Positions 9,670 to 48,802 of a stretch of DNA of 64,000 nucleotides are shown here, in pieces. The translations under genes were made by a program, and so were the position numbers. Every line of letters starts with the position of its first letter. Within the stretch, counting starts at the first letter, position 1. The DNA comes from Candidatus Latescibacterota bacterium (GTDB lineage Bacteria; Latescibacterota; UBA2968; UBA8231), in NCBI GenBank assembly GCA_965200315.1, contig OZ241362.1:5295246-5359245 (forward strand). Reading direction: 5' to 3'. Under the pieces are notes generated by a model. The model saw only the letters and a program-made list of their open reading frames with translations, was not told the DNA's origin and searched no databases.

Positions 9670-10070
9670 TGCTCAGGTATCTGTTAGATACCAATGTGGT
9701 AATTTATGCCATCAAGAACCGCCCCCAATCGCTGCGGCAAAAATTCAATCGGTCGCAAGGTCAGATGGCGATTTCTTCCGTAACTTGGGGCGAACTTGTC
9801 TATGGCGTTGAACGCTCCGCCCAGCCCGAGCGCAATTTGGCGGATATTGAATCGCTGGGCACTAGGCTTGAGATCATGCCGTTTGACCAAGTTGCAGCCA
9901 GCCATTTTGGTCGAATCCGTGCAGAACTGTATCGCATTGGTGCTCCGATTGGCCCCTATGATATGATGATCGCGGGTCAGGCGCGTGCGTCCGGGCTGGT
10001 TTTGGTGAGCAATAATGTAAAAGAGTTTGAAAAAGTTCCGGGGCTCATGCTGGAAAACTGGGTTCACTGA
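9669..10070 (+). CDS. vapC: VapC PIN-domain ribonuclease toxin
   Basis: YLLDTN, E(LVYG), IGPYDMMIAGQA, NNVKEF; overlaps the vapB stop. Confidence 0.95.
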   Translation: MLRYLLDTNVVIYAIKNRPQSLRQKFNRSQGQMAISSVTWGELVYGVERSAQPERNLADIESLGTRLEIMPFDQVAASHFGRIRAELYRIGAPIGPYDMMIAGQARASGLVLVSNNVKEFEKVPGLMLENWVH

Positions 10071-10106
10071 TTCGTCCAGCAAATCACCGCTTGCTATGGG
10101 ATAAGT

Positions 10107-12206
10107 ATGTCGCAACTCGAACACATTGAAGCTATTGAAAGACGGCTCTGGAGCGCGGCAGATACTCTGCGTGCCAACTCTAGCCATGCCAGCAACGAAT
10201 ACTTCCTGCCGGTAATGGGACTGGTTTTCCTGCGCCACGCCTACAGCCGCTATTTGGCAGTAAAGGACGACATAGAAGCCAACTTACCTACTCGCGGTGG
10301 CGTGAAACGGGTGCTGATCAAGGAGGATTTCTCCCAGCAGAGCGCTATCTTCCTCCGGCCCGGGGCCCAGTTCGACTATCTTGTCGCCTTACCCGACGGC
10401 GCGGACCGGGCCGGAGCGATCATCGCGGCTATGGAGTCTATTGAGAACGACTACGACAGCCTGCGCGGCGTCCTGCCCAAGAGCGAATATCGGGAATTGG
10501 ACAGTGCTGTACTCGGCCAGCTCCTGCGCACGCTCAATCCGGACGAGTTGAAGCAGGTCTCCGGCGATGTATTCGGTCGCATCTACGAGTACTTCCTGAC
10601 GCAGTTCGCCGATCAGAAGGCTCACGATGGCGGGGAATTCTTCACGCCTGTGTCGCTGGTGTCGCTGATTGCCCATGTGCTCGATCCGCAGCGCGGCACT
10701 GTGTTGGACCCGGCGTGTGGCTCCGGTGGTATGTTCGTGCAGAGCGCCCGCACTGTGGAGGAGCACGGCCAGAGCCCCACTGAGCGGCTCACTTTTCGCG
10801 GCTTGGAGAAAAACGCCACCACCATCCACCTCGCCAAGATGAACCTCGCCGTCCACGGCCTTGAAGGCGACATTCAGCAGGCCATCACGTACTACGAGGA
10901 TCCGCACGAACTGGTGGGGCAGGCCGACTATGTCATAGCCAATCCTCCCTTCAATGTGGACGAGATTGACGCCGACAAGGTGAAGGTTGATCCGCGCTTG
11001 CCGTTTGGCCTACCTGGTGTCAACAAGCAGGGCAAGGTCAGCAACGGCAACTACGTCTGGATTAGCTACTTCTACAGCTATCTGAAAGAGCGGGGGCGGG
11101 CTGGCTTTGTGATGTCGTCGCAGGCGTCTAGTGCTGGTCGCGGCGAGGCGCAGGTGCGGCGGAAGCTGGTGGAGAGTGGTGATGTGGATGCGATGATCGC
11201 CATCCGCAGCAACTTCTTCTATACCCGCACCGTGCCGTGTGAGTTATGGTTTTTTAACCGTGCCAAGCCGGAGGCGCACCGTGACAAGGTGCTGATGATC
11301 GACGCGCGCAATGTGTATCGCCAAGTGACGCGCAAGATCTGCGACTTTAGCTCCGAACAGCAGCAGAATTTGCTGGCTATCGTCTGGCTCTATCGGGGCG
11401 AGAGCGAGCGTTTTGTCGATCTGGTGTCGAGCTACTGCGACCGCGTTCTCGACGAGGGGAAGGGGGCCTTCAGCGCCGAGAGTGAACGGGGCCTGCCGAA
11501 TTTTCTAGCCTCGCTCAACAGCTTGCGGGATGCGCTGGTTCCTTTTCTCGATACGCTTGGTGCAGAAGATGCCCATGCCGAGGCGTCCGAGAAATTGACG
11601 GACGCCCTGCGCGACTTTGAGGCTGATGGGGACGCTTTCCAAAAGGCGGTTGTCGCGCAGGGGGAGGCTTGGGCTGGGCAGGAAATTGATAGCGGCACGA
11701 TGAAAACAAGGGTTGACGGCCTTGCTTCGCTGGCCGAGAGCAGCCGCGATCTTGCCGGACAGGCCGAACACCTGTACAAGCTGGCTGCTCGTCTCATCGA
11801 GATTTGCGAGGAGGAGTGTGATGCCAAGTCCAGCGTCTTCTATGACGCCCGTGGTGTCACCCGCGCCCGCAGAGATGCCGACGAGGCTCGCCAGCGAGCT
11901 GTTGAGCAACTCAAGCAGGTGCGCTACTTCTATCAGCAGGCCCACTGGCTCACCGAGCGCTTTCCAGACGCTGAGCTGCGCAATGTGGAGGGGCTAGTTA
12001 AGCTGGTGGATTGCGCTGAGATTGAGGCCAACGACTGGAGCTTGACTCCGGGCCGCTATGTGGGGGTCGCGCCCGAGGACGAGGACGAGGATTTCGACTT
12101 CAGGGAGGCCCTGCGCGAAATTCACGAGGAACTGGATGAGCTGAACGCAGAGGCGGCGACGCTGGCGGCGACCATTAAGAAGAACTTCGAGGCGTTGGAG
12201 ATATGA
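10107..12206 (+). CDS. hsdM: Type I restriction-modification methyltransferase subunit M
   Basis: LWSAADTLR, GEFFTP, DPACGSGG, ANPPFN, WSLTPGRYVG. Confidence 0.97.
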   Translation: MSQLEHIEAIERRLWSAADTLRANSSHASNEYFLPVMGLVFLRHAYSRYLAVKDDIEANLPTRGGVKRVLIKEDFSQQSAIFLRPGAQFDYLVALPDGADRAGAIIAAMESIENDYDSLRGVLPKSEYRELDSAVLGQLLRTLNPDELKQVSGDVFGRIYEYFLTQFADQKAHDGGEFFTPVSLVSLIAHVLDPQRGTVLDPACGSGGMFVQSARTVEEHGQSPTERLTFRGLEKNATTIHLAKMNLAVHGLEGDIQQAITYYEDPHELVGQADYVIANPPFNVDEIDADKVKVDPRLPFGLPGVNKQGKVSNGNYVWISYFYSYLKERGRAGFVMSSQASSAGRGEAQVRRKLVESGDVDAMIAIRSNFFYTRTVPCELWFFNRAKPEAHRDKVLMIDARNVYRQVTRKICDFSSEQQQNLLAIVWLYRGESERFVDLVSSYCDRVLDEGKGAFSAESERGLPNFLASLNSLRDALVPFLDTLGAEDAHAEASEKLTDALRDFEADGDAFQKAVVAQGEAWAGQEIDSGTMKTRVDGLASLAESSRDLAGQAEHLYKLAARLIEICEEECDAKSSVFYDARGVTRARRDADEARQRAVEQLKQVRYFYQQAHWLTERFPDAELRNVEGLVKLVDCAEIEANDWSLTPGRYVGVAPEDEDEDFDFREALREIHEELDELNAEAATLAATIKKNFEALEI

Positions 12207-35654: not shown

Positions 35655-35746
35655 AGCTAGCGATTCTGGCCCGCGTTTTGCTTTTGCTTATTGAAAGGGT
35701 GCCCGATGGCGAGTAAATTGAACCTAGTAAGTAGGAGATGACAGGT

Positions 35747-36133
35747 ATGGCAGAACGTTCTCCCCTCGACTATGGCGACCGCATTGGTCGCCTAGAAGGC
35801 ATTATTGAGCAAATCAACGACCGCCTCAGCAACTTAGAGCACCGCTTAGGCAGTGTGAAGAGCAATTTAGAGGGTCGTATCAGCAGTGTAGAGAGCAACT
35901 TAGAGGGTCGTATCAGCAGCGTGGAGAGCAACTTAGGGGGTCGTATCAGCAGTGTAGAGAGCAATTTAGAGGGTCGTATCAGCAGCGTGGAGAGCAACTT
36001 AGGGGGGCGCATAGACCGCTTAGAGAACAGCCACCGGCGGGACTTTCGCTGGCTAATTGGAGCGATGATAGGTATGTGGGCGACGATGATGGGCTTGCTG
36101 TTGACAGTGACCGTTAAGGTTTTTGCGGGCTAG
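35747..36133 (+). CDS. Small coiled-coil repeat protein with C-terminal membrane anchor (DUF1640/Bdr-like)
   Basis: Five 11-aa SSVESNL(E/G)GRI repeats then FRWLIGAMIGMWATMMGLLL; alternative start at 35738. Confidence 0.75.
   Translation: MAERSPLDYGDRIGRLEGIIEQINDRLSNLEHRLGSVKSNLEGRISSVESNLEGRISSVESNLGGRISSVESNLEGRISSVESNLGGRIDRLENSHRRDFRWLIGAMIGMWATMMGLLLTVTVKVFAG
35849..36013 (+). repeat. 33-bp coding tandem repeat x5
   Basis: Unit agcagYgtRgagagcaaYttagRgggtcgtatc; units 2-3 resemble units 4-5. Confidence 0.9.
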
Positions 36134-37686: not shown

Positions 37687-38688
37687 TCATAGCGCAAAGG
37701 GTGGAATGCGGAGGAATGCGCCCCCTTGCCGGGCGGACTCTTGGGCCAACAGACACGCTTGGGCGGTGGCGAACACCGAGCGGGTGGGGATGAAGAGGTC
37801 GGTGCCGCGTTCAATGGCGTCGATGAGGTTGGCGACAAACGCGCCGCTTTGGTCTGGGGGCAGGTCGGGGGTGTACGGGCCGCGCTCGTTGGTGGCGATG
37901 AGCAGGTGGTCGTCGGCATAGGCGCGCAGGTGGGCCGAGCCAGCCGTGCCCATGACGATGAAGCGGGTGTCGCCAAACGAGGGCGCGGCTTGGGGCGTGA
38001 GCCAGTCGGCGGTGAGGGTTGCCAATGAGCCGTCGGATAGCGCGAAGGAAGCCTGCACGTGGTCGTCTAAGCGCGGCTCATCCGCGAACCGCTTGCAGGT
38101 GGCGAGGGCGTGGACGCCGACGCATTCGGCCCCGGTGAGCCAGCGGATTTGATCGACGCCGTGGCAAGCGAGGTCGTGGAACGCGCCCGTGTACTGATTC
38201 GGGTCGAAATACCAAGCTGGGGCTGTGGCGCGGCGGATCTTGTGCGGGTGGGTGGAGATGAGGCTGGCGATGGTCCCGAGCGCGCCGTCGAGGATGGCTT
38301 GGCGCAGGGCGATAAACGGCGGATAGCTGCGCGAGGTGAACCACATGGATACGTGGATTGCGCTGGCGGCTACAGCGCGGCGCATGCGCTCCCAGTCGTC
38401 GAGTGTGCGGCACAGGGGTTTGTCGAGCAGCAGGTGAATGCCCGCGCCGGCGCAGGTTTCTACGAGTGCGGTTTTTTCGTGGTGGATCAAGCCTTCGAGG
38501 ATGAGCTCGGGCCGGGCGCGGTCGATCAGGTCTTCCAAGGTGGCAAAGCGGGGGATGGATGAATAGCGCTCGCAGAGCGCGTTGTCGTCTTCAACTAAGC
38601 CGACGATCTGGCCGTTCGCCGCCTGTAAGGCGGATTGGATCATGCCGCCGATGTGGCCGTAGTGGACGCCCATGATGCCGATGCGCAT
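37687..38688 (-). CDS. Gfo/Idh/MocA oxidoreductase
   Basis: RIGIMG, HLLLDKP, DLACHGVD. Confidence 0.9.
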   Translation of the reverse strand: MRIGIMGVHYGHIGGMIQSALQAANGQIVGLVEDDNALCERYSSIPRFATLEDLIDRARPELILEGLIHHEKTALVETCAGAGIHLLLDKPLCRTLDDWERMRRAVAASAIHVSMWFTSRSYPPFIALRQAILDGALGTIASLISTHPHKIRRATAPAWYFDPNQYTGAFHDLACHGVDQIRWLTGAECVGVHALATCKRFADEPRLDDHVQASFALSDGSLATLTADWLTPQAAPSFGDTRFIVMGTAGSAHLRAYADDHLLIATNERGPYTPDLPPDQSGAFVANLIDAIERGTDLFIPTRSVFATAQACLLAQESARQGGAFLRIPPFAL

Positions 38689-39160
38689 GATGAATTCTCC
38701 GGGTGAGGTGTACGCGGGAAAATAAGACGCGGCGGATTCATGCGCTACGGCTGCTTACGTATATTCAGGCACCAGAAAGGAGCCGAACCATGTCTGATTG
38801 GCTTACTACGAGATTGCCGAATGTTCCACCGTTTGCTCCGCCTCTGCCCGGTTTAGCCAGCTTCCAGTGGTGGGCCGTACTGCCGCGCCGTCGACATCGC
38901 ACCAGTAGATGGCACGATCACGCTGGGATGTATCTCAAGGCTGCATACTTGGCGGCGGGGAATGAGCGCGACAATCTGTTTTGGGGGAGGATTCACAAGG
39001 AGTAGGGATTGCTTCTCAAAGGGCAGCATGTAGCGACTCTGATAAGTGGCCCTCGGACGTCTAGCCGGCACGTGCTGCACGTGCTGCATTGGGATGGCAG
39101 ACCTCCCATGCCTAACGGCCAGTGAGTTACTGTCGTGTACTTAGGCTCGAAAAATTTTTC

Positions 39161-39188
39161 TTGACACGTTATTTTTATGGCGTACTGT
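39161..39188 (+). promoter_or_regulatory. Putative sigma70 promoter upstream of the dynamin operon
   Basis: TTGACA (39161-39166), 16 bp, TACTGT; A/T tract upstream. Confidence 0.45.
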
Positions 39189-39357
39189 AAGCGGTGCTTT
39201 TGCGGCATGTTCTGTGTCGCCGGTTTGGAGAACAAACGAGAACATGGTTGAGCATTCCATATCAGAAAGAGGTCTTGCTGCGATGACCGGGCTCTATCAG
39301 GGGCTTGGAGTCGCCGCCTCTTCAATGTTGCATAAATTGTTAAAAAACAACATCTTA

Positions 39358-39371
39358 CCCCCCCCCCCCCC
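39358..39371 (+). repeat. C14 homopolymer
   Basis: catctta-C14-gatttttct in the leader of the dynamin operon. Confidence 0.9.
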
Positions 39372-39571
39372 GATTTTTCTGGATCACTAAGCACTAACAT
39401 TCTCTACTCTCAGCACGGGCCGACGGATCGCGTTAGGACACTGCGATTCGTGCTGGCCTTCGTCCGTACGGCCGTCGCCGTAGTCCGCCATGGGAGCAAA
39501 GCGGGTAGAGCAGTGAGAAAATCAAGAGGTTCGGCCATCAGTTCTAACTTGCACAAAGGAGGATACGGAAC

Positions 39572-41239
39572 GTGAAGACGGAACAACGAGACTCAACGGC
39601 ATTGAGGACACTTCGCGAGGTTGCCTCGCGGTGGGACTTGGAAATATTGGCTGATGATCTCCAGCAGATTACGAGCGATGACGCGGTGCAGATAGGCTTT
39701 TTGGGGGACTTCAGTAGCGGCAAGAGTACGCTGATCAACGAGCTGGTAGGCGTGGAGGATCTCATGCCAGCGCAACTCGAGCCTTGCACAGCACGGGCCG
39801 GACAGGTGATATCGACCCCTTCTCTTGAAGAGCCAGAGTATTTTCGCGTGGACGACGAGGATGAGCAGACTGCAATCAGTCGACCTGATTTTGATGATCT
39901 CGCCCGCGGGCATACGCCGGGACGGCCGCTTGTGCGCCTCCCATCCCACTCCGGGTTTCCAGCAGGATTCGTATTCCTCGACACTCCGGGACTATCGACG
40001 CTCATTGAAGAGCACACGGAGGTCACATTGGGAGAGCTACCCTTCGTAGATGCCGCTGTGATCTGTATGGATATCCGCAAGGGTGGGCTAACGAGTACCG
40101 TCACCGACTTTCTCACTTCTCCCGGCGTCCGCCATCTGCAGCATCGCTTTCTCATCGCGCTCACATTTGCCGACCAGCTTCCAGATTCTGAACGTGCGGT
40201 GGTAGCCGAGAAGACTGCTGACACGCTGGCTCAGACCATCGGCTGCGCGAAATCAGAAGCCGAGGGCCGCATTGTAGTCGTAAGCGCCGGGCCAGAGGCA
40301 GTCGCGCGCGACGTCAGTGCTTTACGCACCGCCATCCACGAGGTGTTCGAGAAGCGCAAGGCGTTTCTCACGGATGAACGACAACACCGCGCCAGCGTTC
40401 GCCTAGTGCCGCGTGCAATCACACTGCTGGAGCATATGCGCGATGGCCTGCTGGAATCGAAAGAAAATTTTGCGGCGCGCAAGACAGAGGCGGATGAGCA
40501 ACGGACGAGGCTGGACCAAGAGCTACGCAAGCAACGGCAACGCTTCGATAAGTCTCGCGCTGAGCTCCACCGGGATGTGAGTGCAATATGCGACCACTAT
40601 CAGCCTCTGTTTGCCGCTGCGTCGAACGATCTTGCTATAGAACAGGTCAGCGGCGAGTTCTCCTCGGCACTCGCAACAAAGGTTAGCGATCATTTTGCGA
40701 GCTTGGGACAACAATGGGATAACCATGTTGGGGGGATTGACGCGGAGATCCAACGCTTGCTGAGGGACATCAACAAAATTGTGAACTTGGGGGCTACCAT
40801 CGCTACAGGAGCTCTGGCTGTCGCGATAAATCCCGCCACCGGTTTGGCAGCAAGTGCCGCGGAGATGACAGGTGGAGCGGTGCTGCGCGCCGGAGCCGCC
40901 GAAGGGTTCAAGAGAATTGGAACAGGATTACTTGCCACCTTGCATGCTATTAATCCGATCAACATCGTTAGTGACTTTGTTGGGGAGTGGTGGAAAAATA
41001 AGCGCATCGCCGAGCCAATGGATCATATTCGCATGAAGTTTTCGGCGCAAGCGGCACGAGAGATCGAGACATACTTTGAGTCCGAAATATTTCAGCCCCT
41101 AGAGCGCGAGCATAAAGAAGTACAGAGCGTACTTTCTCAGATTGAATCCGAGCGCCGAACCGATATCACCGATCGCAATGCCAAGGTGTCGCGTATCGAC
41201 GCCGATAGCGCTCGGCTCCGAAAGGTTAGTCAGCCATGA
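39572..41239 (+). CDS. Dynamin-like GTPase 1
   Basis: G1 GDFSSGKST, G3 DTPG, G4 variant TFAD; coiled coil; hydrophobic paddle LGATIATGALAVAINPATGLAA; AGGAGG RBS, GTG start. Confidence 0.9.
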   Translation: MKTEQRDSTALRTLREVASRWDLEILADDLQQITSDDAVQIGFLGDFSSGKSTLINELVGVEDLMPAQLEPCTARAGQVISTPSLEEPEYFRVDDEDEQTAISRPDFDDLARGHTPGRPLVRLPSHSGFPAGFVFLDTPGLSTLIEEHTEVTLGELPFVDAAVICMDIRKGGLTSTVTDFLTSPGVRHLQHRFLIALTFADQLPDSERAVVAEKTADTLAQTIGCAKSEAEGRIVVVSAGPEAVARDVSALRTAIHEVFEKRKAFLTDERQHRASVRLVPRAITLLEHMRDGLLESKENFAARKTEADEQRTRLDQELRKQRQRFDKSRAELHRDVSAICDHYQPLFAAASNDLAIEQVSGEFSSALATKVSDHFASLGQQWDNHVGGIDAEIQRLLRDINKIVNLGATIATGALAVAINPATGLAASAAEMTGGAVLRAGAAEGFKRIGTGLLATLHAINPINIVSDFVGEWWKNKRIAEPMDHIRMKFSAQAAREIETYFESEIFQPLEREHKEVQSVLSQIESERRTDITDRNAKVSRIDADSARLRKVSQP

Positions 41240-43146
41240 GACGCGGTCTTAAAATTTTACACACGGTGAAGAAGAAAGTGGAAGCTGCTACCAAGAAGGT
41301 TACAGCAAAGGCACACATTGAGGCACTATCACCTCCCCTACAGGAAGCCACCCCTAAAACAGCTCTCAACGCAACCATTGAATCTCTCCTCGCCTTGCGA
41401 TCCGTTCGAGACCAGTCTGCCGATGCTGGGCTTGATCTATCGACCGACATCGCGCAGAAGTTGACTTCCCTAGAGGAGGGCTTGATCGACCACCTCGCCG
41501 AGCAACGCGAGCATCAAGACGGTATCGGTCTGTTGACCGTATCGGTGGTCGGCGACTTCAACTCGGGTAAATCGACTTTCATCAATGCGCTGCTGGGAAT
41601 GGATGTGTGCCCGGTAGGCGACGAGCCAACGACCGCATCCATAACGCACTTCGTCCATGGCGACCAAGAACGTATTGAGCGGAAATTGGAGGACGGAACA
41701 TATATCCCGCTGGACAAGTCGGAATATCGCACATTGGCTCAGCATAAGAAAGAGGGCGACAGCGGGCCGTACGCCTTTCGCATTGCAGTAAATTCCCCGG
41801 TTCTCGATCATATTCGACTTGTCGATACGCCCGGGTTTAATGCCCCGCCCCCAAATACGAATGATACCAAGGTGACCGAAGAGGCTGTCACGGAATCTGA
41901 CGTGCTGTTTGTGCTCATGGATGCCAATAAGGGCAACCCATCGGATACGCTGTTGGATCAGTTGGATCGGCTGTCGCAAGATTCGACTAACGAGTCTCGT
42001 CAACCCGCATTTCTCTTGCTCAACAAGGCTGAAGGACTGCCGCCATCGCAACGTAGAGAAGTAACGCGTTTCTGCAAGGAGCGGCACGGCGATCTATTTC
42101 GCGATGTCGTGCCTGTTTCTGCGTTGCAGTTGATTGAAGCCAAAGACGAGGAACCACTTGATGCGCTGGACATCGCAATGCAGCACATGCGATCTGCTTA
42201 CAAGGCGCGAGTTCCATTTCAAAAAAATATCTCGGCTGAACTGATTGTACAGGATTACAGGATCGATATCAGCGGCAACGTGTACGATGTGCCCGCCTCA
42301 TCGGATTTTGAACTGGCATCCCGCGAACAACTTGCCGAGATGGTGAAGGACGTGGCAGCAGAACGACACGTCTTGCTTGAACAGCAGTTTCAGCGCAACA
42401 CCTTGCAATTGCGGGAAGACTGGCAAACGACGCTTTCTGATTTGGAGCAAGCACTGGAAAGTGCGCTAAGTGAGTCTTCCGGCGGAAGTGATGATGGTGA
42501 TGTAACCAAACATAAGGAGACGGTACTTGAAGCTATCGAAGAAGCGAAGCGGAATACGATCAATCTTGTCAATGAGATTTTTCAGGGGCTATCTGAGGAA
42601 ATAGTTGTCAAAAGCAATCGAACTGAAGAGGGCTTTTTTTCGGATACTGAATATTATCAAAATCATGTTTACTTAGACAAAGCACCTGACGTAGTGGATA
42701 ATCACGATAATTGGCGTCGTATATCTGGCATATATCAAGGGCTACTTTCATACTTAAAAAAGTCTCTTGACATCAACTTAGACTTCACACCCCAAGAAAT
42801 TGCTGAGTACCTGAAGGAAGAATTTCTTGAGCGAATTCGCGGCACAGTTAAAGCAGTAGAGCAAGTTTTTCAGGAAGATGATGAATCGGATAAAAGAGGG
42901 AATTTTTGGCAGTACGAATATTATGACGAATTTGGAAGAAACGAGCACTTTAACCGTATGATCTCACATTTTGAGTCGCATGGCGACGACAATCTCAGTG
43001 TTTCGATCATTCAAAAGGTGATAGATTATCTGCGGGAAGCCGTCATTAGCACTGCTGGAAGAAATCAATCACAGGTTGCGGAACGAGCTGAAGAATTGAG
43101 GAGACTCCAACAGCGAATCAATGAGATGAAGGAGCATACGCTATGA
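41236..43146 (+). CDS. Dynamin-like GTPase 2
   Basis: G1 GDFNSGKST, G2 EPTT, G3 DTPG, G4 variant NKAE; ATGA overlap. Confidence 0.9.
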   Translation: MRRGLKILHTVKKKVEAATKKVTAKAHIEALSPPLQEATPKTALNATIESLLALRSVRDQSADAGLDLSTDIAQKLTSLEEGLIDHLAEQREHQDGIGLLTVSVVGDFNSGKSTFINALLGMDVCPVGDEPTTASITHFVHGDQERIERKLEDGTYIPLDKSEYRTLAQHKKEGDSGPYAFRIAVNSPVLDHIRLVDTPGFNAPPPNTNDTKVTEEAVTESDVLFVLMDANKGNPSDTLLDQLDRLSQDSTNESRQPAFLLLNKAEGLPPSQRREVTRFCKERHGDLFRDVVPVSALQLIEAKDEEPLDALDIAMQHMRSAYKARVPFQKNISAELIVQDYRIDISGNVYDVPASSDFELASREQLAEMVKDVAAERHVLLEQQFQRNTLQLREDWQTTLSDLEQALESALSESSGGSDDGDVTKHKETVLEAIEEAKRNTINLVNEIFQGLSEEIVVKSNRTEEGFFSDTEYYQNHVYLDKAPDVVDNHDNWRRISGIYQGLLSYLKKSLDINLDFTPQEIAEYLKEEFLERIRGTVKAVEQVFQEDDESDKRGNFWQYEYYDEFGRNEHFNRMISHFESHGDDNLSVSIIQKVIDYLREAVISTAGRNQSQVAERAEELRRLQQRINEMKEHTL

Positions 43147-45128
43147 AGGATTTTCAAGATTACCAAACGCGCCAAGCTACTCTCTGTGAGTGGTACGACC
43201 GCGTTATTGAGAACAATACACTGCTACAGGCAGACGTGGAGGCACTTCAAGAGGCAAAAGCCAACCTGCAAGACGGTCGCTTTGTTGTAGCGGTCTGCGG
43301 CGAGATGAACAGCGGGAAATCGACCCTGCTCAACGCTCTGCTTTTCTCGGAGGAGGTGCTGCCGAGTCACGTTACGACCATGACGGCCAAGATCGCACTC
43401 ATGGGAGGGGACGAGACTGAGCGCATTGAGGCCACGCTGTACACACCTGACGAGTTTCGCCAGGTGGTGGAAGCCAGCAAGCCGGATGAACGCTCCGCAC
43501 AGGAACTAGCTGAGGCGCGGAAGACTGCTCGGGCGGAGGGGCTCAAGGAGTCTGACCTGCTCACCACCCCGGCACAGGTCAAGGCCGAGGAGGGTCTCGA
43601 TAAGCTCGTTCAGTTTGCGGCGGTATGCAGCCGCGGAGGCATATATAGTGCGTATGTCAACTGGGTACAGTTGTGGGCGGATCGCCCGTGGCTCCATCAA
43701 GTGACAGTCGCCGATACTCCCGGAACCAATGATCCGAACCCGGAGCGCGACAAAATCACCCGCGAGTGGATCCAGCGTGCCGATGCTGTGGTGTACGTCA
43801 CTTTTGCTGGGCAAGCGGGCATGACCGGTTCAGATGTGAAATTTATCGACGAGCACTTGGCACATATCAGTCCCCAGCGGCGCATCATCGCGGTGAACAA
43901 ATGCGACGAGCAGCTCGACAAAGAGCCCATTCGGAGCCACATTCAGAATATCCGGGACAGCGGCGACTTGAGGATGAAGTCTCTGTTCGGAGATGACGAC
44001 CAGATCGTACTCGTCAGTGGCCTCGGTGCGCTTATTTCCGCCATGCAGGAAGCCGGTCGTCCCCTGTCCGAGGATTTGAAATGGCATGAACGGAAACTAT
44101 CTGATAGGGGCTATTTGGATCCAGAGCAGCACGGTATCGAGCAACTCCGCAGTGTCATTGAACGACGAATCATCGTCACCAAAGGCGATGGTATTATCGA
44201 GGCGCATCAAAGGCGCTTGGACAGCGTCTTTGAAAGTGCCGATGCGGGTATCTCCCAAGACATGGCGTTATTGACGGCTAATCTCAATGCTGTCAACGCA
44301 TCGAAGGAAGAGCGCCGCGAAGAAGCTGAGCGGATAAAAGAAAATATCGCTTCGATAGATTCAGTGGTCAGGAACGCGAAGGGTACGTTTGCAAAGGATC
44401 TTGACGAAGCACAAGGTCCTCTGCAAGAAAGCATTAGTGAAACGGTTCGTAAGGTCTCGCAAGGGATCGTCGCCGACCTTAGCGATGTGACAAATATCGA
44501 CAATATGGCAAATCAAGCGGTATGGAGCATCGAGAGCAATCTGTATAGGGAGCGTAATGTTCTCGCGAAAGCTATCAGAGATATTGTGAGTAAAATCGAA
44601 GGTACGCTCAATCAGGCCGAGAATGAACTCTCCGATAAATTTTTGTCAAGCGGATTAACGGTTGACGAAGGGCCACAGTATCACTTACTGCCGGTCTCGT
44701 CTCATACCATTTGCAAGGAAGCAGAAGCGGAACTGATCAACAAGCTTGACCGCGAGACTCTGGGGAACGCTGTGAGCGACGCAACTACTTTTTGGCAGTG
44801 GCTTTTTGATACAAAGAAAGGCAGAAGTGCTGCTATTCAGCGGTTGGAAGCTGAACTTGGAAAGCGCCTGAAAAAGACTCTTAAGGGACTCTCTGAAGAG
44901 ACTAGCCGAGAGTTGCAGAAGCACGGAGAAGAGGCTCTTCAGACAATGCAAAAGAGGGGTCGGCGCAATCTCGAAGAGCGGCATAAGCTATTAAAAGAGT
45001 TGGAGAAAGAGATCTCGTCCGATGAGAACAAGCGGCAAGAGATTGACGAGCAGCTTGTGGAATTAGATCGGCGAAAACTGCAAGTGGACGAACTTAAAGC
45101 TGAATATGACCTAGCGAGGAGTATCTAA
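43143..45128 (+). CDS. Dynamin-like GTPase 3
   Basis: G1 GEMNSGKST, G3 DTPG, G4 NKCD; long helical C-terminus; ATGA overlap. Confidence 0.92.
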   Translation: MKDFQDYQTRQATLCEWYDRVIENNTLLQADVEALQEAKANLQDGRFVVAVCGEMNSGKSTLLNALLFSEEVLPSHVTTMTAKIALMGGDETERIEATLYTPDEFRQVVEASKPDERSAQELAEARKTARAEGLKESDLLTTPAQVKAEEGLDKLVQFAAVCSRGGIYSAYVNWVQLWADRPWLHQVTVADTPGTNDPNPERDKITREWIQRADAVVYVTFAGQAGMTGSDVKFIDEHLAHISPQRRIIAVNKCDEQLDKEPIRSHIQNIRDSGDLRMKSLFGDDDQIVLVSGLGALISAMQEAGRPLSEDLKWHERKLSDRGYLDPEQHGIEQLRSVIERRIIVTKGDGIIEAHQRRLDSVFESADAGISQDMALLTANLNAVNASKEERREEAERIKENIASIDSVVRNAKGTFAKDLDEAQGPLQESISETVRKVSQGIVADLSDVTNIDNMANQAVWSIESNLYRERNVLAKAIRDIVSKIEGTLNQAENELSDKFLSSGLTVDEGPQYHLLPVSSHTICKEAEAELINKLDRETLGNAVSDATTFWQWLFDTKKGRSAAIQRLEAELGKRLKKTLKGLSEETSRELQKHGEEALQTMQKRGRRNLEERHKLLKELEKEISSDENKRQEIDEQLVELDRRKLQVDELKAEYDLARSI

Positions 45129-45617
45129 ATGGATAAGATGAACACTGTGATTTTGGTCGCCGGTACTGCGATCATTGTAGGCAGTACTGTTATATGGTAT
45201 AGGCATCGCCGTCCCATAAGTCCTTCATCCCCTCCATCCCCTTCATCCCCTCCATCCCCTCCATCCCAAGAGCAATGCTCCTTCGTCCAACAACGGATGG
45301 AGACCTACCGCGATGAGATGCTCCGCTACGAGCTTGGCCTCGAATACCATCGTCGTGGGGCATCGCGGGCTGTTTTGCAGAAGTTGCTCGGCGGTGGCGA
45401 GGAAGTACTGGCCATGCCGATTCTGTATCTCAATTCCGACGAATGGCGATGGGAGCAACAACAGCTCCAAGAAGCGGTGGAAGCTGCGCTTGGCGAGCTC
45501 GGTCTTTCTGTTCCCCCGGATATTCGCGAGCCGACCACCCAAGCAGCACGCGCCTGCGAGCAATGGGCCGCTACCCGAGCCAAACGGCTATTCGACGAAG
45601 AACTAGGCAGCGATTAA
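45129..45617 (+). CDS. Small single-pass membrane protein, last gene of the dynamin operon
   Basis: ATG directly follows the DLP3 TAA; N-terminal TM VILVAGTAIIVGSTVIWY, Pro/Ser linker from 9-bp repeat x5 (45222-45266), helical domain. Confidence 0.75.
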   Translation: MDKMNTVILVAGTAIIVGSTVIWYRHRRPISPSSPPSPSSPPSPPSQEQCSFVQQRMETYRDEMLRYELGLEYHRRGASRAVLQKLLGGGEEVLAMPILYLNSDEWRWEQQQLQEAVEAALGELGLSVPPDIREPTTQAARACEQWAATRAKRLFDEELGSD

Positions 45618-45782: not shown

Positions 45783-47546
45783 CTATCCCGACAACTTCCG
45801 CACGTACACATAATACGGCGCGATGGTCCGCTCGGCGAGGTCGTGAAACGAGGCGTAGAGCCGGTCCGGGCCAGCGGCGAGGTCCAGTTCAAAACAAGCA
45901 CTGGCTGCGGCCGGATCGATTTCTTGCTGAAAATTTTGCCCGCCGATGGTTAGCTGGCCCCAGCCCAAGGCGAGGGCGACCCCACCCTCGTAAGCTGGCG
46001 CATTTTTCGCTTGGATGCCGGGGCGATACCAGCCGCTGTCGTCGCCTTCAATCCCCGCAGTAAGCGCATAGCCGGTTTCCTCGGGCCAGCGCCGCAGCTC
46101 AATCTGGTAGCGGCCCGCCTCTTTGACATCGACGGCCCAAAAACCACTCGTTATTTGCCCGGCGCGGACTTGACGCTGATTCCAGACGGCGCTGCACGCC
46201 TCATTGCGGATGTCGTGGGTGGTGAGTTTGGCAGGCCGGTCGTCCCCGCCCAAGGCAATCGGCTCGTCGCGGTCGAATTGCTCGGAGATGAGCTCCCACC
46301 AGTCATCATACTCAGCGCGCAGGTCGGCGACGACGACGGGATGTGCGTCGGCGATGTCTTGTCGCTGGCCGGGATCTGTGCCGAGGTCGTAGAGCGCGCG
46401 GCCGTCGATGAGCCGCCACTTGCCTTTCATCACCGAGCTCTTGCGCCATTTGACCGGATGGGCCACGCGCTGGGTGTCGCAGACGTTGATGCGGTCGGAC
46501 AAAGCTGAATCGTCTGCGCCTTGCAGCAGCGGCACTAGGCTCTGGCCGTGGAAGGTGCGGCCGGTTGGGACTTCGACTCCGCACAAGTCGAGCAGGGTCG
46601 GCATGAAATCCACGTAGCAGGTCAGCGCGTCGATGTCGCGGCCGCCAGCGATGTGCCCGTTGGGATAGCGGATGAGGAAGGGGACGCGGTGGCCACCTTC
46701 GTACGGGGAGCCTTTTTTGCCGCGCATGCCGGCGTTGTAGCTGCCCGGCCCTTCGCGGGGGAACTGATCGGCGTCTAGCTCGACGCCGGTGGCTGTGCCG
46801 TTGTCGGTCATAAAGATGAGGATGGTGTTGTCGGCGATACCCAACTCGTCGAGCGTGGCCTGCAAGCGGCCGAAGTTTTCGTCGATGTTGGTAATCATGC
46901 CGTAGAAGCGGGCGCGTTCTTCGTGTGGGGTGGTATTGCGGTATGGCGCGACGTAGTGCGGCTTTACGTTGAGCGGCCCGTGCGGCGCGTTGGTGGCGAT
47001 GTAACAGAAGAAGGGCCGGTCGGCGTTTTCTGCGATAAAGCGCTGGCCCTCGCGGAAGAACACGTCCGTGCAATAGCCCTCATACGGAGTAGGGACGCCG
47101 TTTTTGAAGTAGGTGTCGTCAAAGTAGTCGTTGCCCCAAGGGTCGCCCGTGTTGCCGATGCCGCCGCCAGCGTGGTACACAGATTCGGCAAAGCCGCGCT
47201 CGTGCGGCCGGTAGGGCGGGCTGTCGCCGAGGTGCCACTTGCCGAAGTGCCCGGTGCGATAGCCCGCGCCAGTGAGCGCGTCCGCGAGAGTCCATTCGTC
47301 GGCGCGCAACAGCGAGCGGCCGCCAATAGTGTGCCAGACGCCGGCACTGTTGCAGTAGTGGCCGGTGAGCAGGCCGGCGCGGGTGGGGGCGCAGGTGGAG
47401 CCGACGTGGTAGTCGGTGAAGCGCACGGCATCTTGGTGGAAGCGGTCGAGGCAAGGCGTGTGGATCGCGCTGTTGCCGTGGCAGCCCAAGTCGCCGTAGC
47501 CTTGGTCGTCGGTGAGGACGAAGACGATGTTGGGGCGCGGGGCCAT
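45783..47546 (-). CDS. Arylsulfatase (S1)
   Basis: RPNIVFVLTDDQGYGD, CAPTRAGLLTG, GKWHLG, TDNG. Confidence 0.96.
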   Translation of the reverse strand: MAPRPNIVFVLTDDQGYGDLGCHGNSAIHTPCLDRFHQDAVRFTDYHVGSTCAPTRAGLLTGHYCNSAGVWHTIGGRSLLRADEWTLADALTGAGYRTGHFGKWHLGDSPPYRPHERGFAESVYHAGGGIGNTGDPWGNDYFDDTYFKNGVPTPYEGYCTDVFFREGQRFIAENADRPFFCYIATNAPHGPLNVKPHYVAPYRNTTPHEERARFYGMITNIDENFGRLQATLDELGIADNTILIFMTDNGTATGVELDADQFPREGPGSYNAGMRGKKGSPYEGGHRVPFLIRYPNGHIAGGRDIDALTCYVDFMPTLLDLCGVEVPTGRTFHGQSLVPLLQGADDSALSDRINVCDTQRVAHPVKWRKSSVMKGKWRLIDGRALYDLGTDPGQRQDIADAHPVVVADLRAEYDDWWELISEQFDRDEPIALGGDDRPAKLTTHDIRNEACSAVWNQRQVRAGQITSGFWAVDVKEAGRYQIELRRWPEETGYALTAGIEGDDSGWYRPGIQAKNAPAYEGGVALALGWGQLTIGGQNFQQEIDPAAASACFELDLAAGPDRLYASFHDLAERTIAPYYVYVRKLSG

Positions 47547-47547
47547 G

Positions 47548-48288
47548 CTATTGCCCCTGTTCGGTACGCCAGGCTTCGTATTCGGCGCGGGCTTCTTCAC
47601 TGAGCGGGTAGTATTTGCGCAGGTGCCCGCCCTCGGCCAGCTTCATGCGGCTGAAGTCCTCCCACTCGGCGTGGGCTTGGGCCTTTTCGGTCAGTTCGGG
47701 GGCGAGTTGGGCCGGGACGACGGTCGCACCGTCGTCGTCGGCGACGATGATGTCGCCGGGCATGACGAGGGTGTCGCCGCAGGCAATGGGCACGTTGACT
47801 GCGAAGGGGAAGATGTTGGTTTGGGTGTGGAAGTTGGGGGTGGTGCCGCGCAGCCACAGCCCGAGGTCGAGGTCTTCGAGCACCTTGGGAAAGTCGCGGA
47901 TGCAGCCGTCGATAACCGCGCCGATGCCGCCGTGCCCCATGAAGAAGGTGAGCATCATCTCGCCGAAGACGCCGCTGTGCAGGTCGCCGCGCGCATCGAC
48001 GACGATGATGTCGCCGGGTTGGGTGTGGTACAGGGCGTGGCGGTGAAGTTGCTTTTCCGGGTCGGCGTATTCGTCAACCGAGTATTGGTCTTCGCGCTTG
48101 GGCATAAACTGCAAGGTCAGGGCCGGGCCGACGACGTGCTTGCCCGGGGTGCGGGCGACCGGGCCTTGGATGTGGGGGTCGCGGATGCCGAGGCGGGCGA
48201 GCTCTCCGGCTGCGGTTGCGCTGGAGATGGGGGCGAGGGCATGGAGGAGGTCTTTGGAGGGGCGTTGGATGTCGTTGGTTGCGACCAT
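47548..48288 (-). CDS. RraA / HMG-CHA aldolase family protein
   Basis: VVGPALT, GDIIVVD, FGEMM, DGCIRD, PGDIIVADDDG. Confidence 0.9.
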   Translation of the reverse strand: MVATNDIQRPSKDLLHALAPISSATAAGELARLGIRDPHIQGPVARTPGKHVVGPALTLQFMPKREDQYSVDEYADPEKQLHRHALYHTQPGDIIVVDARGDLHSGVFGEMMLTFFMGHGGIGAVIDGCIRDFPKVLEDLDLGLWLRGTTPNFHTQTNIFPFAVNVPIACGDTLVMPGDIIVADDDGATVVPAQLAPELTEKAQAHAEWEDFSRMKLAEGGHLRKYYPLSEEARAEYEAWRTEQGQ

Positions 48289-48444: not shown

Positions 48445-48802
48445 ATGTTGACCCGCCTGAAAGTCTCTAACTTCAAGAATTTGGCGGATGTGGATTTGTA
48501 CCTCGGTCCGTTTACCTGTGTGGTGGGGCCGAATGGGTGGGCAAGTCGAACCTGTTCGACGCGATTCGGTGTCTGAGCGCACTGGCCAACCACACGCTCA
48601 TGAAGCCGCCGTGCGCGACCTTTTCCACCGCGTAGGAGACCACTATGCCGAGCGCATGACTTTTGAGGCCGAAATGATCGTGCCGCGCCGGGCCATCGAC
48701 GACCTCGGGCAGGAGGCCGAGGCTAGGCTTCCTAGCCTTGGCCTTATTAGAGATCGATCCGCAGATGCAGGGGATGGGTTGTCCATCGCGTGGCCGAACT
48801 GA
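48445..48802 (+). pseudogene. Frameshifted, truncated AAA_21/RecF-like ABC ATPase
   Basis: GAGGAG RBS; MLTRLKVSNFKNLADVDLYLGPFTCVVGPNG, frameshift, GKSNLFDAIR...DDLGQEAEA. Confidence 0.8.

Follow-up and report, generated by a model that had tools for sequence, protein, structure and literature searches.

Introduction

Bacterial dynamin-like proteins (DLPs) are described as forming pairs, or 'at least a genetic pair', with up to eight DLPs in some cyanobacteria (PMC4159319, PMC6104087). Eleos (formerly 'Dynamins'), composed of LeoA and LeoBC, was validated as a defence system from Bacillus vietnamensis; according to the same report, the two-gene dynamin operon protects Bacillus subtilis only against the jumbo phages AR9 and PBS1, both P-loops are needed, and a known defence system adjoins 60% of the operons (Millman et al., bioRxiv 10.1101/2022.05.11.491447). 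The name Eleos, given to what is described as a two-gene system, comes from Cury et al. (bioRxiv 10.1101/2022.12.12.520048). DynA has been reported to protect against phage by membrane sealing, delaying lysis (cited in bioRxiv 10.1101/2022.05.11.491447). The Campylobacter jejuni proteins DLP1 and DLP2 form a tetramer (5OWV), for which a role in membrane repair and tethering was proposed (Liu et al. 2018, PMC6104087), and in enterotoxigenic Escherichia coli deletions of leo genes halved the vesicle-associated cargo (Michie et al. 2014, PMC4159319). Here we describe a four-gene operon, at positions 39572–45617 of a 64,000-nucleotide stretch of the genome of a Candidatus Latescibacterota bacterium (assembly GCA_965200315.1, contig OZ241362.1; the whole stretch is referred to as the window), in which three complete DLPs are followed by a small non-GTPase protein, and we compare it with these systems.

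Architecture of the four-gene operon

All four genes lie on the forward strand. Gene 1 (39572–41239, 555 residues, GTG start) encodes a LeoA-like DLP, gene 2 (41236–43146, 636 residues) a DLP resembling Campylobacter DLP2, gene 3 (43143–45128, 661 residues) a DLP resembling Campylobacter DLP1 and LeoBC, and gene 4 (45129–45617) a protein of 162 residues. ATGA overlaps join gene 1 to gene 2 and gene 2 to gene 3, and the TAA stop codon of gene 3 abuts the ATG of gene 4, with a GGAG motif 9 nt upstream of that ATG. A first-pass annotation of the stretch had claimed three divergent, full-length DLPs coupled by ATGA overlaps and a 162-residue protein with a single transmembrane (TM) helix beginning one base past the stop, and this layout was borne out: the open reading frames (ORFs) lie exactly where it had placed them, the DLPs share 23–26% pairwise identity, and gene 4 has one hydrophobic helix, at residues 1–26. 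The GC content inside the block is 0.39–0.59, with a minimum of 0.392 at 42500–42999, and that of the coding flanks is 0.59–0.67 (500-bp windows), in agreement with the earlier remark that the block is AT-rich, especially at 42.5–43.1 kb.

By sequence, the products of genes 1–3 are members of the dynamin superfamily with intact P-loop, switch I and switch II. The Dynamin_N profile (PF00350, Pfam cut-off 27 bits) matches gene 1 with 39.5 bits (E = 7.8e-10), gene 2 with 80.6 bits (E = 1.7e-22) and gene 3 with 69.9 bits (E = 3.4e-19). The G1 motif (GxxxxGKS/T), the switch-I Thr and the G3 motif (DTPG) are retained in all copies of each GTPase (9–10 loci, two phyla; see below). The canonical G4 motif of the superfamily is N/TKxD. 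Gene 3 has canonical G1–G4 motifs, its NKCD being invariant at 10/10 loci; gene 2 carries NKAE at 9/9 loci and gene 1 an unusual TFAD at 9/9, and since each of these two is invariant, they are conserved peculiarities and not signs of decay. The identity of 23–26% among the three proteins extends over ∼180–230 residues of the GTPase region, so they are old paralogues of different types.

The three types are also apparent from profile and structure comparisons. Gene 1 matches the PADLOC profile for LeoA (PDLC03839) with E = 3.8e-17 and 60.6 bits, residues 131–540 aligning with positions 103–548 of 559, and gene 3 matches the profile for LeoBC (PDLC03841) with E = 1.9e-15 and 55 bits, residues 32–631 aligning with positions 64–567 of 601. 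Gene 2 aligns with both profiles in the GTPase domain only. The NCBIfam equivalog cut-offs for DynA (NF052648, 15–35 bits against 1600) and CrfC (NF007368, 16–26 bits against 1146) are not reached by the DLPs of the unit. The profile comparison proposed in the first-pass annotation thus divides: LeoA and LeoBC match genes 1 and 3 nearly end to end, although with weak scores, whereas CrfC falls far below its cut-off. Among the sequences of the PDB, the best match of the gene 2 profile is 5owv_C (E = 4.8e-11) and that of the gene 3 profile is 5owv_A (E = 7.5e-11); the gene 1 profile finds BDLP alone, marginally (E = 0.0026). An AlphaFold model of gene 2 (9 sequences; mean predicted local distance difference test (pLDDT) score 65) comprises an N-terminal helical hairpin, the GTPase domain and a long helical stalk. 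Its best fold match is 5oxf_C (E = 1.4e-13, 646 columns, 15–16% identity in the fold alignment), followed by IniA and BDLP. As the match to 5oxf_C spans 646 columns, gene 2 is a complete DLP.

Hydropathy analysis places the membrane elements of the operon in two proteins only, as a paddle in gene 1 and a TM helix in gene 4. The paddle of gene 1 (approximately residues 400–470) contains a hydrophobic Gly/Ala-rich segment at residues 400–428, within a conserved region of ∼70 residues. No hydrophobic paddle or TM segment is detected by hydropathy in genes 2 and 3, and the N-terminus of gene 3 is not hydrophobic.

Comparison with known dynamin systems

The unit shares with Eleos a consecutive arrangement of DLP genes, nearly full-length best matches of genes 1 and 3 to LeoA and LeoBC, intact P-loops and a patchy, accessory distribution. 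It differs in having four genes instead of two, the additional ones being a full-length DLP of another type (gene 2) and an unclassified partner (gene 4), and also in its profile scores of 55–61 bits, in an NCBIfam LeoA score far below the cut-off and in a defence-island context that is seen at some loci only. The two-gene format of Eleos (three genes if LeoBC is split) is replaced at 9/10 complete loci by three complete DLPs and a non-GTPase gene.

The LeoC-LeoB-LeoA operon of E. coli H10407, as it is described in PMC4159319, likewise comprises three consecutive dynamin-related genes; the Gly-rich paddle of LeoA corresponds to that of gene 1, and an N-terminal membrane anchor resides on a separate polypeptide. 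However, LeoC and LeoB are there described as the halves of one DLP, so that the operon encodes two DLPs, whereas the unit encodes three complete ones. The anchor of LeoC sits on a GTPase half; in the unit, gene 3 has no LeoC-type N-terminal TM anchor, and the only TM-like helix is found in the non-GTPase gene 4, which has a folded domain of its own.

With Campylobacter DLP1/DLP2 (5OWV/5OXF, PMC6104087) the unit shares adjacent, coupled, heterotypic genes, with gene 3 corresponding to chain A and gene 2 to chain C. The similarity is remote (E ∼1e-11), the unit adds a third DLP and gene 4, genes 2 and 3 lack a paddle, and their order is reversed relative to a Campylobacter-type locus (L031). 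DynA of B. subtilis is described as a multi-headed membrane dynamin of which one head binds the membrane (PMC4159319), and in the unit, similarly, only gene 1 has a paddle; DynA, however, is a housekeeping fusion of two DLPs, whereas the proteins of the unit are separate and their locus is accessory and mobile. The literature searched does not describe any operon of three DLPs with a dedicated non-GTPase partner; supplementary tables (for example Table S5 of Millman et al.) may list longer variants.

The unit recurs with its fourth gene in at least two phyla

Complete loci of the unit comprise the one in the window, a second copy in the same genome (L019), those of three further Latescibacterota genomes (L020, L021 and L025), four loci in Spirochaetia metagenome-assembled genomes (MAGs; L109–L112) and one degraded locus (L108). 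The order 1-2-3-4 is kept with open reading frames at 9/10 of them, and this recurrence of one gene order at separate loci shows the block to be more than a chance juxtaposition. The degraded locus has intact genes 3 and 4 but has lost gene 1 and the first ∼166 residues of gene 2, among them the P-loop. Two fragments at contig ends show genes 3 and 4; one of them (L107) is a 4.2-kb contig labelled Poribacteria. The second copy in the same genome is 78, 63, 74 and 77% identical to genes 1–4 of the window, respectively, and the Spirochaetia proteins are ∼45–55% identical to those of the window. Junctions are conserved as well: 4-base overlaps at the gene 1/2 and gene 2/3 junctions were seen in 5/6 loci checked, from both phyla, with a gap of 32 bp between genes 1 and 2 in L111.

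Gene 4 follows gene 3 at 12/12 unit loci, with identities of 65–79% within the genus and ∼45–55% to Spirochaetia. A lack of conservation of gene 4 with the DLPs, which the first-pass annotation had named as grounds for abandoning its proposal, was therefore not observed. Conversely, a profile of the gene 4 family found no member at 78 other DLP loci (5332 ORFs), while the positive control recovered 12/12. These 78 loci include a second three-DLP operon of the same genome (C1 3051383–3060943, L022:6384–15943), which encodes DLPs of 738, 786 and 796 residues followed by coupled genes of 316, 214 and 338 residues. It is unrelated to the unit at 39572–45617. Only its first DLP matches the PADLOC LeoBC profile (9.8e-12), and it has no relative of gene 4. 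In total, the source genome contains 16 Dynamin_N matches. Gene 2 was also used to fetch 77 unrelated DLP loci, 12 of which carry three ORFs matching DLP profiles. Clusters of three DLPs are thus not rare in themselves, and the specific feature is the combination of this trio with gene 4. The term 'atypical architecture' used in the first-pass annotation holds in this narrower sense, for the trio plus gene 4 but not for three DLPs alone.

Carriers of gene 4 number 6/168 among Latescibacterota genomes and 5/31 within the genus. Among 401 evenly drawn Spirochaetota genomes there was one, the query's own centre genome. The MAGs that carry genes of the unit are labelled Latescibacterota, Spirochaetia and Poribacteria, and one further protein is labelled Gemmatimonadota. 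The unit is common to at least two phyla; a third, Poribacteria, rests on one short, cut contig.

Gene 4 defines a small family with a conserved helical domain

No family was assigned to gene 4 in Pfam, PADLOC or NCBIfam. Its N-terminal helix has a mean Kyte–Doolittle hydropathy of 1.94; after it come a basic cluster, a Pro/Ser linker and a helical domain (residues 47–159, ∼110 residues). According to the positive-inside rule, a basic cluster after a TM helix marks the cytoplasmic side, so the folded domain is predicted to be cytoplasmic. In a model built with 29 relatives, 108 residues have a pLDDT of at least 90, and helices are formed by residues 47–76, 80–87, 110–123 and 135–159. The linker is encoded by tandem 9-nt units (45222–45266, forward strand), with four overlapping 18-nt copies spaced by 9 nt. 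The array is polymorphic in length: one contig from an RNA library (run X5) lacks 9 nt at 45226, equal to one repeat unit.

A profile search of 1.84 billion representative proteins returned 51 representatives with E ≤ 0.001, of which 40 have E ≤ 1e-10 and 5 have E ≤ 1e-30. The family is thus small and rare, with proteins of ∼150–220 residues. A TM-like N-terminus is present in 25/41 family representatives, and within Spirochaetia the N-terminus is a TM helix in L109, an amphipathic basic helix in L110 and L112, and neither in L111. The N-termini therefore vary, and the conserved feature of the family is the C-terminal domain of ∼110 residues, not the anchor. The label 'membrane anchor' given to gene 4 in the first-pass annotation fits the copy in the window and does not extend to the whole family. 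Comparison of the model with the PDB by Foldseek gave no match at E ≤ 0.001 (best 0.48, TM-score <0.25), the highest Z in a VIA-align comparison with 48 161 chains was 5.1, a value common for helical bundles, and the ESM Atlas contained no usable match. These results do not establish a new fold.

In a predicted complex of full-length gene 3 (10-row alignment) and residues 46–162 of gene 4, the pair scored 0.54, with 0.00 for the best control; at least 92% of contacts are shared between runs, and the partner has a pLDDT of at least 82. The score mark used here was reached by 58/80 solved complexes and by 2/110 mismatched pairs, and scores of 0.60 or below contain only 7/80 solved complexes but both mismatches.

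For distant relatives of gene 4, alignments of sub-clusters located no loci in genome contigs and one in metagenome contigs (L128). There (L128:7236–9351) a relative of 221 residues with a Gly-zipper segment closes a coupled trio of unknown genes (130, 352 and 221 residues), near GyrB-like, ParB_N and AAA_5 genes.

A variable chromosomal site

In the window, the unit is bordered on the left by a GFO/IDH/MocA oxidoreductase gene (37687–38688, reverse strand; Pfam) and on the right by a sulfatase gene (45783–47600, reverse strand; Pfam). The flanks also encode a GH5 cellulase, an RraA-like protein and an enolase-family protein, so that the Pfam identities agree with the catabolic surroundings noted in the first-pass annotation. 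The same oxidoreductase and sulfatase genes border the unit in L021 and L025; among these three loci the flank proteins are 87–95% identical and the unit proteins 56–80%. Oxidoreductase orthologues, 91–94% identical, are present in 15 congeners with a gap to the sulfatase gene of 5 bp to 8 kb, and a sulfatase orthologue in 30/31 genomes of the genus. In the 15 other congeners in which the site was fetched, it contains no DLP unit: the gap is 5–212 bp in 3 (empty) and 1.7–8 kb in 12. The usual cargo is an amidohydrolase and a GSDH-like secreted protein with a type IX secretion system tail (90–97% identity), which is probably the ancestral content of the site; other cargo comprises transposases of insertion sequences (2/15), a Type IIG restriction-modification gene (1/15, E = 5e-179), a DUF4238 gene and small paired ORFs. 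In one congener (G007), the unit lies elsewhere and the site is empty.

The second copy in the same genome carries a 47-residue remnant of the 3′ end of the sulfatase gene on one side and 111 bp of the oxidoreductase-proximal spacer on the other, and because both edges of the site are represented, it was copied or imported as a whole-site segment. The GC content of the unit is lower than that of its flanks at 9/9 loci, by 3–11 points. The unit gene tree does not follow taxonomy. Gene 3 of the Poribacteria-labelled fragment is 58–68% identical to the copies of this genus, compared with 51–58% for the copy of a different genus within this Latescibacterota family; this suggests either that the unit was transferred between phyla or that the 4.2-kb contig is mis-binned. 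No terminal repeats bounding the unit and no tRNA genes in the 64-kb window were found. A search with gene 3 of plasmids gave four remote matches, confined to the GTPase domain, and no relatives of gene 4 were found in viral contigs. The unit is accessory, located in a variable chromosomal site, duplicated in this genome and horizontally moving. With a lower GC content than the flanks at 9/9 loci, a patchy distribution and a variable site, the view of the first-pass annotation that the block was horizontally acquired is supported.

Other features were noted around the unit loci. In L111, genes for HAD-type hydrolases lie on both sides (2036–2860 and 9797–10966), as if the unit had been inserted in a HAD cluster. 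Another fast-evolving gene of the window, at 35738–36133, encodes a coiled-coil protein of 131 residues that is 50–70% identical among congeners, compared with 83–94% for its neighbours. A 104-residue ORF at 48488–48802 is a remnant (82–87% identity over 45 residues) of a protein of 482–519 residues found in complete form at the syntenic loci L021 and L025, and a Spirochaetia relative of that protein (L112:15188–15826) coincides with a match to the AriA profile.

Neighbours of defence type occur only at some of the Spirochaetia loci. A PDC-S15/FRG gene was found at 2/4 of them, directly 3′ of gene 4 in L112 and two genes 5′ of the unit in L109, with an ankyrin-repeat gene in between, and a WYL/WCX regulator at 1/4, two genes downstream in L110. 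Flank matches to HEC-01A were rejected as defence evidence, as this profile matches in 14/14 control genomes with 23–75 matches per genome, and those to AriA were rejected with 11–40 matches per genome.

Evolutionary rates

Ratios of nonsynonymous to synonymous substitution rates (dN/dS) were estimated by the Nei–Gojobori method between the window and L021 and L025. They are 0.26–0.27 for gene 1, the slowest of the unit, 0.44–0.49 for gene 2, 0.37–0.39 for gene 3 and 0.53–0.65 for gene 4, compared with 0.085–0.18 for flanking genes, so the unit exceeds its neighbours 2–6-fold, at comparable dS (0.25–0.66 in the unit and 0.25–0.44 in the flanks). The highest ratios are found in the stalks (0.60–0.86 for residues 401–636 of gene 2, the AT-rich C-terminal part, and 0.71–0.81 for residues 361–661 of gene 3), whereas the GTPase halves have 0.14–0.45. 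No regional ratio above 1 was found (maximum 0.86). In the C-terminal stalk of gene 3, 11 clustered substitutions (window 44860–44984) are present in RNA-library contigs of two runs and missing from the DNA run compared, a sign that strains vary in this fastest-evolving region.

Upstream region and RNA libraries

The 883-bp intergenic region upstream of gene 1 (38689–39571, forward strand) is presumed to contain the promoter and leader of the operon. It contains no ORF with a family, the 135-residue reverse ORF at 38993–39400 having no Pfam match; no sigma-70-like promoter was detected in it, the counts being equal to the shuffled expectation, and no Rfam match at E ≤ 0.1. Two parts of the region match the second copy of the unit in the genome: the last 42 bp, at 97.6% identity, and the first 111 bp, next to the oxidoreductase gene, which have an 85% identical counterpart upstream of that copy. 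Approximately 200 bp 5′ of gene 1 lies a run of 14 C (39357–39370, forward strand), a candidate phase-variable element. A run of 13 C is found at the equivalent place of L021, inside a conserved 45-nt stretch of an otherwise diverged spacer. The 5.36-Mb genome contains only four G/C runs of at least 11, this one included; of the others, one is in a CRISPR spacer and two are in methyltransferase genes, of Type III (E = 4e-209) and Type II (E = 1.3e-38). Phase variation through homopolymers in mod genes is a classical mechanism. The association with methyltransferase-gene tracts is suggestive of a phase-variation role for the poly-C tract, with the qualification that homopolymer lengths in assemblies are unreliable and the association rests on four tracts.

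The two methyltransferase genes are themselves candidate phase-variable restriction-modification genes. The run of 14 C at C1 1055676–1055689 (L129) is inside the Type III methyltransferase ORF (PDLC03632, 4e-209), whose profile match ends just before the tract, and a HEC-06/Orf5 DUF262-like gene (E = 5e-227) adjoins this ORF; the run of 11 G at C1 4880675–4880685 (L130) is inside the Type II methyltransferase ORF. The CRISPR array, in which one spacer has a run of 13 C, is located at C1 ∼589000–597000, with cas-like ORFs upstream.

The window stretch was found in 7 runs of two studies, of which 3 are metatranscriptomic libraries of one study, with 83–91% of the sampled words present; one of the DNA runs is labelled 'sponge metagenome'. 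All four genes are covered by contigs from the three RNA-library runs, and such contigs span every junction (genes 1/2 in X6, genes 2/3 in X4 and X6, genes 3/4 in X4, X5 and X6), a hint that the operon is transcribed in situ. Word depth in the RNA libraries (∼7–42 in the unit and 1.6–1.9 in the bin 38642–39048) was rejected as a measure of expression, because contig depth cannot rank genes. In the DNA run, word depth is 99–280 over the whole stretch and 140.9 in that bin.

Discussion

We give about an even chance to the reading that the four-gene operon is an expanded, four-component relative of Eleos, a heteromeric membrane machine with an anti-phage role, and not Eleos as currently defined. 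In this machine, the three GTPases would assemble through contacts of their GTPase domains and stalks, in the manner of the Campylobacter DLP1/DLP2 tetramer and of the assembly proposed for LeoA/LeoBC. Gene 1 would insert its paddle into the cytoplasmic membrane. Gene 4 would substitute for the N-terminal anchor of the LeoC type and recruit the paddle-less gene 3, together with gene 2, to the cytoplasmic membrane; that the anchor is supplied in trans is suggested because gene 3 is LeoBC-like without a LeoC anchor and the only TM helix of the operon is on the coupled gene 4. GTP-driven remodelling or sealing of the membrane could then protect the cell against phage, as in two-gene Eleos and DynA. 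The defence role is inferred from the behaviour of the unit: it is rare, mobile, duplicated and fast-evolving in its putatively target-facing parts, which favours defence over housekeeping repair.

Several results weigh against this interpretation. The matches to LeoA and LeoBC are weak (55–61 bits), and the NCBIfam model for LeoA/HP0731 (NF041922) reaches 20.4 bits against a cut-off of 325. Gene 3 was the sole partner tried with gene 4, and the predicted contact between them has weak support; the multimer prediction suggested by the first-pass annotation was thus answered for this pair only. No DLP lies within 9 kb of the one distant gene 4 relative whose context was recovered (L128), so the domain may also serve other systems. 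In the window and at the two syntenic Latescibacterota loci the neighbours are catabolic and not of defence type, and the survey for defence islands that had been proposed gave a mixed answer, positive at some Spirochaetia loci and negative at these three. As the apparent ancestral cargo is the amidohydrolase and GSDH-like pair, the site is not a dedicated defence hotspot. A flank match to Old was discounted, since such AAA-ATPase families have 11–75 copies per genome and are also present in control genomes. Gene 3 had no match in 50 697 phage records, and no unit carried by a phage or plasmid was found in the records searched. Diversifying selection on the stalks is suggested by their rates, but with dN/dS below 1 relaxed constraint may also account for them. 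The poly-C tract is absent upstream of 7 other copies of the unit (present at 2/9 loci). Finally, RNA libraries may contain DNA and a bridging contig is not equivalent to a single transcript, so the contigs are not proof of transcription.

A bolder version of the defence reading, which we hold only tentatively, describes an immune machine in which gene 4 would be a detached, exchangeable receptor, the DLP1/DLP2-like pair would sense phage through hypervariable stalks, and a LeoA-like protein would carry out the membrane step. The cassette would have spread horizontally in one host-associated community and, in some lineages, would be under a poly-C on/off switch like the restriction-modification genes of the same genome.

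General membrane maintenance is similarly a minority possibility. In this explanation the unit would act in repair, fusion or tethering under envelope stress, like DynA, Campylobacter DLP1/2 or mycobacterial IniA/IniC, and an effect on phage would be incidental. Among solved structures, the nearest to genes 2 and 3 is indeed the Campylobacter pair, for which membrane repair and tethering were proposed (PMC6104087), IniA and BDLP are the next structural matches of the gene 2 model, and in the window the unit is surrounded by ordinary metabolic genes. One PspA/IM30 gene is present among 58 flank proteins, but it was rejected as a conserved neighbour because PspA is not adjacent to the unit in the 5 genomes checked. 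A housekeeping repair system should moreover be widespread, whereas gene 4 is found in 6/168 genomes of the phylum and 5/31 of the genus, and the unit is duplicated, moves between sites and phyla, and has proteins that evolve 2–6 times faster than their neighbours. The defence and repair readings overlap, as DynA is reported to protect by sealing membranes.

It is unlikely that the unit is instead a niche or host-association factor of sponge-associated bacteria, acting for example in vesicle release as proposed for LeoABC in enterotoxigenic E. coli, where leo deletions halved vesicle-associated cargo (PMC4159319). All the carriers found belong to uncultured lineages, and several appear to live in association with sponges: their labels are Latescibacterota, Spirochaetia and Poribacteria, with the single Gemmatimonadota protein, and one DNA run is labelled as a sponge metagenome. 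Poribacteria are sponge symbionts. The gene tree that does not follow taxonomy and the ankyrin-repeat gene directly upstream of the unit in L109 would also fit a host-association role. However, only 5/31 genomes of the genus carry the unit although their niche is presumably common, defence genes exposed to the same phages would equally be expected to be shared within a habitat, and the ankyrin neighbour is seen at 1 locus only. Very unlikely, finally, is an ordinary Eleos pair (LeoA and LeoBC) accompanied by a duplicated DLP and an unrelated small ORF, and hence already known in essentials: genes 1 and 3 do have LeoA and LeoBC as best PADLOC matches over nearly whole profiles and multi-DLP clusters are common (12/77 other loci), but gene 2 is no recent duplicate (23–26% identity to genes 1 and 3, resemblance to a different solved DLP, its own NKAE at 9/9 loci in two phyla), gene 4 is under purifying selection (dN/dS 0.33–0.65) with a confident fold and is kept at every unit locus, and Eleos is described as a two-gene system (Cury et al.; Millman et al.).

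New, relative to the multi-DLP operons and Eleos that are already known, are the trio with its non-GTPase partner and the gene 4 family, which is absent from the domain libraries searched. Of bacterial dynamins that arrest phage, only a two-gene version has been tested. The cassette splits functions that are merged elsewhere into a paddle protein, two paddle-less GTPases with fast-evolving stalks and a small anchor or adaptor, and this split makes the sensing, membrane-binding and working parts separable experimentally. Three-DLP assemblies with a receptor-like partner are known from eukaryotic dynamin-related proteins, and none was found for bacteria in the literature searched; as an expanded relative of Eleos, the unit would offer the bacterial dynamin field a natural assembly of this kind. 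It is a cassette of little-studied, uncultured bacteria of at least two phyla, with evidence from RNA libraries in situ.

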